A stretch of 41,323 nucleotides of DNA from Escherichia coli (GTDB lineage: Bacteria; Pseudomonadota; Gammaproteobacteria; Enterobacterales; Enterobacteriaceae). Location of the stretch: the NCBI RefSeq assembly GCF_003334255.1, contig NZ_QOWU01000052.1. One strand, given 5' to 3'. Position 1 is the first letter of the stretch; each line of letters begins with the position of its first letter. The translations under genes and the position numbers were made by a program. The notes beneath the pieces are model-generated. The model was not told where the DNA came from. It did not search any database and was given only the letters and a program-made list of their open reading frames with translations. Positions 6,245 through 7,579 of the stretch are shown here, in pieces.

Positions 6245-6260
6245 TAGTCCACTCTTCTAA

Positions 6261-6284
6261 GCCCGGTCTTGCCGGGCGTTTTTA
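6261..6284 (+). terminator. Stem-loop plus T-run between fmt and rsmB (possible intra-operon attenuator)
   Basis: gcccgg-tcttg-ccgggc hairpin (6261-6277) followed by ttttt (6279-6283), immediately before the rsmB ATG. Confidence 0.4.
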
Positions 6285-6289
6285 TACTT

Positions 6290-7579
6290 ATGAAAAAACA
6301 ACGTAATTTACGTAGCATGGCGGCCCAGGCCGTTGAACAAGTCGTCGAGCAAGGGCAATCATTAAGCAACATTCTGCCACCGCTCCAGCAAAAAGTTTCC
6401 GATAAAGACAAAGCACTTCTTCAAGAGTTGTGCTTTGGCGTACTGCGTACGCTTTCGCAGTTAGACTGGCTGATTAATAAGTTAATGGCCCGTCCGATGA
6501 CCGGCAAACAGCGGACCGTGCATTACCTGATTATGGTTGGTTTGTATCAACTGCTTTATACCCGCATTCCACCTCATGCTGCGCTGGCTGAAACGGTTGA
6601 AGGCGCTATCGCAATTAAGCGTCCGCAACTTAAAGGGTTGATAAACGGTGTATTACGCCAGTTCCAGCGTCAGCAAGAAGAGTTATTAGCCGAGTTTAAT
6701 GCCAGTGATGCACGTTATCTGCATCCTTCCTGGTTGCTGAAGCGTCTGCAAAAAGCGTATCCAGAGCAGTGGCAATCCATCGTCGAAGCCAATAACCAGC
6801 GTCCGCCAATGTGGCTGCGTATTAATCGTACGCATCATTCCCGCGACAGCTGGCTTGCATTGCTGGATGAAGCAGGAATGAAAGGTTTCCCGCATGCGGA
6901 TTACCCTGATGCTGTACGTCTGGAAACACCTGCACCTGTTCATGCGCTACCTGGTTTTGAAGACGGATGGGTTACCGTTCAGGATGCATCAGCACAAGGT
7001 TGCATGACCTGGCTTGCGCCACAAAACGGTGAACACATTTTGGATCTTTGTGCCGCCCCCGGCGGTAAAACAACGCATATCCTTGAGGTGGCACCAGAAG
7101 CGCAGGTTGTTGCGGTTGATATCGACGAACAGCGCCTCTCTCGGGTTTACGACAATTTAAAACGCCTTGGTATGAAGGCGACCGTGAAACAAGGTGATGG
7201 CCGTTACCCTTCTCAATGGTGTGGCGAGCAACAGTTTGATCGCATTTTATTAGATGCGCCTTGTTCAGCAACCGGTGTGATTCGTCGCCATCCAGATATT
7301 AAATGGTTACGTCGCGATCGCGATATCCCGGAACTCGCGCAATTGCAGTCTGAAATTCTCGACGCCATTTGGCCGCATTTAAAAACCGGTGGAACTCTGG
7401 TCTATGCCACCTGTTCGGTGTTACCGGAAGAGAATAGCCTGCAGATTAAAGCCTTTTTGCAACGTACCGCTGATGCCGAACTTTGCGAAACAGGAACACC
7501 AGAGCAACCGGGTAAACAAAATCTACCTGGTGCCGAAGAGGGCGACGGCTTCTTTTACGCTAAGCTAATCAAAAAGTGA
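6290..7579 (+). CDS. rsmB: 16S rRNA m5C967 methyltransferase RsmB/Sun (429 aa)
   Basis: Translation [25 protein letters not shown]...; NusB-like N-terminus and SAM-MTase core ([20 protein letters not shown]); start taken at the internal ATG of ORF 6269..7579. Confidence 0.93.

Follow-up and report, generated by a model that had tools for sequence, protein, structure and literature searches.

The spacer between fmt and rsmB in Escherichia coli carries a short GC-rich hairpin directly followed by a run of U residues, and this element probably acts as a leaky Rho-independent (intrinsic) terminator that splits the output of the def promoter into a short def-fmt and a long def-fmt-rsmB-trkA message. 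The stem-loop lies at positions 6261–6277 on the + strand of the window, by which we mean the whole 41,323-nt stretch of DNA analysed, and RNA 3' ends have been mapped inside its U-run in vivo. According to the proposed mechanism, RNA polymerase would start at the def promoter and transcribe the GC-rich palindrome and the U-run, and the nascent hairpin would fold in the exit channel over a weak rU:dA hybrid. A fraction of the polymerases would then release a def-fmt mRNA of roughly 1.55 kb ending at the fourth U, and the remaining polymerases would continue and produce a def-fmt-rsmB-trkA mRNA. The outcome would be a fixed step-down, in which message for the two N-terminal-methionine enzymes would exceed that for the 16S rRNA methyltransferase and the Trk subunit, and the 3'-terminal hairpin would also shield the short def-fmt mRNA against 3' exonucleases.

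The def-fmt-rsmB-trkA locus

In the RefSeq annotation of the window, def, fmt, rsmB, trkA and mscL follow one another on the + strand and are flanked by dprA upstream and arfA downstream, both in the opposite orientation; the def-fmt-rsmB-trkA order given in the original prediction agrees with this annotation and with the list of open reading frames (ORFs). The def coding sequence (4773–5282, +) and that of fmt (5297–6244, +; GTG start, TGA stop at 6242–6244) are placed identically by both sources. rsmB (6290–7579, +) starts with an ATG at 6290–6292, followed by AAAAAA at 6293–6298, and encodes the annotated 429-aa RsmB; trkA (7601–8977, +) begins 21 nt past rsmB and is a member of the read-through unit. 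The ORF list opens the rsmB frame (6269–7579) at a TTG at 6269, 7 codons before the annotated ATG; this start was not adopted, as it lies within the hairpin loop and is probably unused. The 1 kb around the hairpin is E. coli chromosome, present in 5426 of 5426 complete E. coli genomes and 100% identical to many E. coli chromosomes, that of the K-12 derivative ER1709 among them. The fmt-rsmB junction was found in 5428 copies, one of them on a plasmid-typed record, and one genome has two copies. Window positions are converted to MG1655 coordinates with an offset of 3428917.

A promoter scan found promoter-like hexamers for def at 4698–4727 (+; CTGTCA-18-TAGAAT), and the primary def transcription start site (TSS) reported by SMRT-Cappable-seq (Supplementary Data 1) falls just downstream of them, at window position 4732 (MG1655 3433649, +). 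This TSS is the origin of the transcripts that reach the fmt-rsmB terminator. From the def promoter to the end of trkA, no sigma-70-like promoter was found on the + strand at the scan threshold. rsmB is transcribed only via read-through or from an unmapped internal promoter, and fmt is the final gene on the short def-fmt transcript.

Anatomy of the hairpin

The stem-loop consists of a 5' arm GCCCGG (6261–6266), a loop TCTTG (6267–6271) and a 3' arm CCGGGC (6272–6277), that is, six G-C pairs plus an optional U6267-G6271 closing pair, which leaves a loop of 3–5 nt. Directly 3' of the stem, a U-rich tract (6278–6285, +) reads G-UUUUU-A-U, with six U in 8 nt; at the DNA level, G6278 is followed by TTTTT (6279–6283), by ATACTT (6284–6289) and then by the rsmB ATG. 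The gcccgg-tcttg-ccgggc palindrome with ttttt ending 6 nt before the ATG had thus been described exactly, in both sequence and spacing, and the range 6245–6292 given for it corresponds to the 45-nt spacer plus the ATG. A consensus scan classes the hairpin as terminator-like, with 7 pairs, 6 of 7 being G-C; the isolated hairpin has a folding energy of -12.5 kcal/mol, and a 61-nt stretch containing it folds with z = -2.5 relative to shuffles. A GC-rich, short-loop stem and a U-rich tract 3' of it, the two sequence hallmarks of an intrinsic terminator, are therefore both present. The tract departs from the ideal, as its first tail position is a G and no more than five U are contiguous, and this counts against the terminator reading.

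The stem starts 16 nt past the fmt stop codon and ends 12 nt before the rsmB ATG. Judged by its footprint dimensions, a terminating ribosome does not extend 16 nt past the stop codon, and since this gap exceeds the reach of a ribosome positioned on the fmt stop, the hairpin is free to fold.

Such a combination is rare in the surrounding DNA. A strict terminator motif (6 or more G-C pairs in a row, a loop of 3–8 nt and no fewer than 5 T among the 7 nt that follow) occurs twice on both strands of the 41-kb window, compared with 0.05 occurrences in random sequences, and the fmt-rsmB hairpin is the only one on its own strand. The palindrome GCCCGG-N5-CCGGGC occurs once in the window where 0.05 occurrences are expected, and these two comparisons lead us to reject a chance occurrence. 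The hairpin is single-copy, with a median of one place per genome among 5402 E. coli genomes; together with the single match in the window, this rejects a dispersed repeat or a REP-type stabiliser. A bidirectional terminator was also rejected, as no T-run follows the palindrome on the minus strand. The other strict motif in the window lies at 41183–41198 on the minus strand and consists of GGGCGC-TTCG-GCGCCC followed by TTTTT.

RNA 3' ends and transcripts in published maps

The mapped RNA 3' end lies at window position 6282 (MG1655 3435199, +), the fourth U of the run and 5 nt past the stem, and it is found both by Term-seq and by SMRT-Cappable-seq. Fresh termination typically leaves ends 7–9 nt past the stem, and the shorter distance seen here speaks for a role of the hairpin mainly as a 3'-end protector, in which an end or cut located downstream would be trimmed by exonucleases back to the hairpin and def-fmt would accumulate through differential decay. 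Term-seq and SMRT-Cappable-seq are, moreover, unable to separate termination from exonuclease trimming. Adams et al. nevertheless classed the end as primary with a canonical terminator sequence (Adams et al., 2021; PMC7815308), and the protecting and terminating roles are not mutually exclusive. We consider protection in place of termination unlikely. That the end originates by termination and not by trimming, that Rho is dispensable and how large the step-down is are points that we infer.

In the Term-seq data of Adams et al. (file 1), the end at 3435199 (+) is "primary" for fmt, with the flanking sequence ...GCCCGGTCTTGCCGGGCGTTTTTATACTTATG, and it was detected under two of three growth conditions (scores 2260.75 and 753.39); according to file 3, the rsmB ORF begins 8 nt downstream of it (Adams et al., 2021; PMC7815308). 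A search of the Rho-termination regions in supplementary file 2 of the same study returned zero hits for fmt or rsmB. SMRT-Cappable-seq has identified a primary transcript that runs from the TSS at 3433649 to a transcription termination site (TTS) at 3435199 and covers b3287|b3288; this TTS is flagged "novelTTS" and listed in one sheet (Yan et al., 2018; PMC6131387). The same study extended the RegulonDB def-fmt and rsmB units, both of them, to b3287|b3288|b3289|b3290 (Yan et al., 2018; PMC6131387). Short and long transcripts both exist, and the short one ends at the fmt-rsmB U-run. The idea of a partial terminator is hence backed by the Term-seq end, by the TTS at 3435199 and by the def-fmt-rsmB-trkA transcripts. 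The original prediction had placed the expected Term-seq end at about 6284, close to the published one at 6282 (Adams et al., 2021), and the opposite outcome that it had envisaged, a hairpin devoid of 3' ends, is contradicted by the ends that both methods report at 3435199.

The site is thus already known, being recorded in two public genome-wide datasets, Term-seq and SMRT-Cappable-seq; literature searches on fmt, rsmB/fmu, trkA and def-fmt found no dedicated study of the fmt-rsmB terminator. The operon itself has been described in different ways: def-fmt is treated as an operon by Dar and Sorek (2018), a def-fmt-rsmB operon is named in a review, and a 2025 paper credits Cho 2009 with def-fmt-rsmB-trkA. 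A leaky terminator would explain why databases list both def-fmt and def-fmt-rsmB-trkA, with one promoter giving rise to two transcript lengths.

The amount of read-through depends on how the SMRT-Cappable-seq table is understood. The def-fmt row gives 460 reads at the TSS, 31 that end at the TTS, 8 "passing through" and 357 "within 50 bp downstream", with a median read-through size of 1456.5 nt (Yan et al., 2018; PMC6131387). The authors' formula, as stated in the header and note, yields a read-through of 8/396, or 2%; if the 357 are instead counted as read-through molecules, the value becomes 357/396, or about 90%. Either figure, 2% or about 90%, can be derived because the meaning of one count column is ambiguous, and the counts and the "median read-through size" column are mutually inconsistent between rows of the table. 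The AAAAAA after the rsmB ATG is a plausible site of internal priming by oligo-dT, from which the 357 reads may stem.

Farther downstream, two excerpts of the Adams Term-seq data (LB and M63) show the + strand free of 3' ends from 3435199 up to 3438498 (window 9581, past mscL), and for this reason read-through transcripts may continue through mscL. An AT-rich hairpin of 12 pairs is found directly past trkA (8979–9006, +; TAATAAGGCGTC-TAAT-GACGCCTTATTA), and it has a poor T-tail.

A further stem-loop lies inside fmt, in codons 16–24 (window 5342–5371, +; GCAGCGCGTC-ATCTC-GACGCGCTGT; -18.3 kcal/mol), where Term-seq has mapped 3' ends to MG1655 3434286 and 3434288 (window 5369 and 5371). With a score of 5484, this end exceeds the fmt terminator end, and it is classed as internal at +72, with Rho "No". 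Enterobacteriaceae, Serratia and Pantoea preserve the stem in its nucleotides, Yersinia shows a matched double change that even alters Asp to Gly, and the stem is lost in Photorhabdus, Dickeya and Brenneria. This fmt-internal stem-loop may end or stabilise a def-only RNA.

Conservation and covariation in relatives

A scan with the Fmt protein, taking one genome per species, provided 80 loci from Enterobacterales, Vibrionales, Aeromonadales, Pasteurellales and Alteromonadales, and an rsmB homologue adjoins fmt in all 78 of the 78 loci with a readable downstream sequence and start. Of the 68 spacers that reach 25 nt, 45 contain a hairpin followed by a T-run, whereas dinucleotide shuffling of these spacers leads one to expect 3.3. 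This excess also counts against the trimming explanation, as a pure exonuclease barrier needs no U-run. Pectobacterium, Dickeya, Brenneria and Aeromonas have kept a hairpin after fmt without the U-run, and such retention in several lineages speaks for trimming to a protective stem; the stem may, to judge from these sequences, have a role apart from termination.

Structure is kept in the relatives rather than sequence. Within Enterobacteriaceae, the arms GCCCGG/CCGGGC are retained and the loops vary (TCTTG, AGCCT, TGTTA, CGCTC, TTATG, TACCG and others), and matched stem changes occur in other genera: GCCCAGG/CCTGGGC, GCCCGGG/CCCGGGC, GCCCGAT/ATCGGGC, GCCTGGC/GCCAGGC and AACCCGG/CCGGGTT. In an alignment of 32 homologues, pairing at the six core positions is complete (100%), double changes occur at 6 of 8 pairs, and the loops are free in sequence and length. 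None of 500 shuffles reached the covariation score of this alignment, and pairing amounts to 89.6% in register versus 27–54% with the partner slid. In Pasteurellaceae, Shewanella, Ferrimonas and Bowmanella, fmt and rsmB abut or overlap, and there is no hairpin. Selection thus maintains a stem-loop after fmt, usually with a U-run, in lineages with a spacer.

A second, unrelated hairpin, GCTGRC-loop-GTCRGC with a T-run (T6 in most), was observed in Yersinia, Rahnella, Photorhabdus and Xenorhabdus (loci L023-L027, L034, L036, L044, L046 and L047), 10–14 nt before the rsmB ATG. These loci often have an upstream GCCCGAT-type hairpin too, with a poor U-run. A terminator abutting an rsmB start that lacks a Shine-Dalgarno (SD) sequence has thus arisen in two sequence forms. 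Pantoea and Erwinia have a gap of only 3–8 nt between the fmt stop and the stem, and because of this short gap translation could interfere with the hairpin in these genera.

Within E. coli, the spacer type of the window, taken over 55 nt, is found in 2288 genomes, and variants of it with 1–2 nt changes (e.g., loop G to A, or G6278 to A) in 2104. A B2-type allele, present in 1008 of 5426 genomes, has a 6-nt insertion and a broken U-run, A-UCUUU-AUAUUU; its sequence is GCCCGGTCTTACCGGGC-ATCTTTATATTTATACTT-ATG (locus L082, E. coli S65EC, 168–260). The broken run counts against the terminator reading, and the allele (about 19% of E. coli genomes, 6 nt longer) represents a ready natural experiment. 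The 251 nt around it (window 6150–6400) show only about 93% identity, an unusual degree of divergence for a core region of E. coli.

A possible coupling to translation

The original prediction had also proposed an attenuator, and a candidate antiterminator can be found at 6224–6229 (+), where the Pro-Gly codons of fmt read CCGGGC, identical to the 3' arm of the terminator. Pairing of this segment with the 5' arm at 6261–6266 would block the terminator unless a ribosome finishing fmt covers 6224–6229, such that read-through into rsmB-trkA would depend on how closely ribosomes trail the polymerase. When the RNA is considered up to the loop (6215–6271), the minimum-energy fold indeed pairs 6224–6229 with 6261–6266, at -14.0 kcal/mol; in the full RNA, however, 6224–6229 folds locally with 6234–6239, and the competing helix, which closes a 31-nt loop, is weaker than the terminator stem (-10.2 vs. 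-12.5 kcal/mol). Comparison with shuffles gives a p of 0.01–0.04 for the 6-nt complement in E. coli, E. albertii, Serratia, Edwardsiella and Brenneria, and changes in the arm are matched by codon changes in Enterobacter sp. Ag1 (CCTGG), Brenneria (CCGGTA) and Yersinia nurmii (ATCGG). In most genera that share the hairpin (Citrobacter, Enterobacter, Kluyvera, Phytobacter), by contrast, the complement is only 4–5 nt long and no better than shuffles, and any Pro-Gly pair (CCN GGN) automatically matches an arm with a CCGG core. Complementarity of at least 6 nt occurs in 9 of the 56 loci with a spacer hairpin, that is, in 8 besides the E. coli reference locus.

The listing of the 3435199 end in only some of the Term-seq conditions (two of three) would fit a regulated site. 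On the other side, an Rfam scan of 4600–9200 returned no family at threshold and nothing at the hairpin, and neither an aptamer, nor a leader peptide, nor a protein site was found that could serve as a sensor, the upstream ORF being full-length fmt with no leader ORF. A regulated attenuator is therefore weakly suggested by the alternative helix in E. coli and weakened by the lack of conservation of that helix, and we regard it as a very improbable account of the hairpin.

The other proposal, that the hairpin occludes or shapes the ribosome-binding region of rsmB in the read-through mRNA, is very hard to uphold. The stem does end at -13 from the ATG, within the span contacted by the 30S subunit, but it contains neither the start codon nor any SD, and its distance from the ATG varies too widely for occlusion to be conserved: 12 nt in Escherichia, 17–18 nt in most Enterobacteriaceae and 37–39 nt in Cedecea, Mangrovibacter and Serratia. 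E. coli has the hairpin this close to the ATG because its U-rich stretch is 6 nt shorter than that of Citrobacter and of the B2-type allele. The best match to the anti-SD in the 22 nt before the start (-22 to -1) is -2.7 kcal/mol for rsmB, compared with -6.4 for def, -5.9 for fmt and -9.0 for mscL; the value for trkA is -3.2 kcal/mol. Occlusion of an rsmB ribosome-binding site as originally imagined thus finds no usable SD to occlude, and a stem that stops 12 nt short of the ATG here and 12–39 nt short of it across relatives.

rsmB, lacking an SD, might instead be initiated through a U-rich unstructured stretch, which would lend the region a translational role. Folding predictions place the U-run in a weak helix with the AAAAAA, with unpaired probabilities of 0.04–0.12 at 6279–6283, although this U:A helix consists of A-U pairs alone. 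At window positions 6279–6298, the U5 run and the AAAAAA (rsmB Lys-Lys codons 2–3) flank the ATG, and ATG-AAA-AAA is retained in most Enterobacterales rsmB genes. It is possible that the U-rich, SD-less leader aids the loading of ribosomes on rsmB.

RsmB makes m5C967, which touches the binding of initiator tRNA. The two ideas could be joined into a translation-sensing attenuator that would tie RsmB and TrkA to the coupling of fmt translation with transcription, with the U-run serving as the SD-less loading site of rsmB; such a scheme seems to us very unlikely. A leaky intrinsic terminator, set between genes that share one promoter, remains our preferred explanation of the hairpin.

Comparison with known systems

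The fmt-rsmB hairpin resembles canonical E. coli intrinsic terminators in several respects: it is a short GC stem-loop with a U-run, the 3' ends lie in the U-run, it acts in one direction only, it sits within a few tens of nt of the preceding stop codon, and its stem is kept by compensatory change. Compared with strong operon-end terminators, however, it is shorter and weaker, with 6–7 bp, a G at the first tail position and five contiguous U, and it lies inside a gene cluster, its tail ending 6 nt before the next start. The leader attenuators of trp, thr and leu and the riboswitches share with it a possible alternative partner of the 5' arm in translated sequence; unlike these, it follows a full-length gene, its alternative helix is not conserved, and it contains no known aptamer. 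Intercistronic stem-loops that stabilise mRNA, such as the REP of malE-malF and the hairpins of the puf operon (both cited by Dar and Sorek, 2018), are likewise stable hairpins that end a better-expressed upstream segment, but the fmt-rsmB hairpin is single-copy, is not a REP and carries a U-run.

The closest likeness is to partial terminators located inside operons, among them the terminator that separates rpsU from dnaG in rpsU-dnaG-rpoD and the attenuator of rplL-rpoB. As in those cases, the fmt-rsmB hairpin sits between cotranscribed genes, and both stopped and read-through transcripts are seen; as for dnaG, the ribosome-binding sites downstream, here those of rsmB and trkA, are weak. Read-through has also been described for prs-dauA, dapA-bamC and accD-folC (Yan et al., 2018; PMC6131387; PMC7264889). 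The present understanding of termination is left unchanged by the fmt-rsmB hairpin, which is an ordinary feature; it would nonetheless offer a clean, conserved intra-operon step-down between the translation-start enzymes and the ribosome-modification/potassium-uptake pair. By analogy, the hairpin would belong functionally with internal operon terminators such as the one that precedes dnaG.
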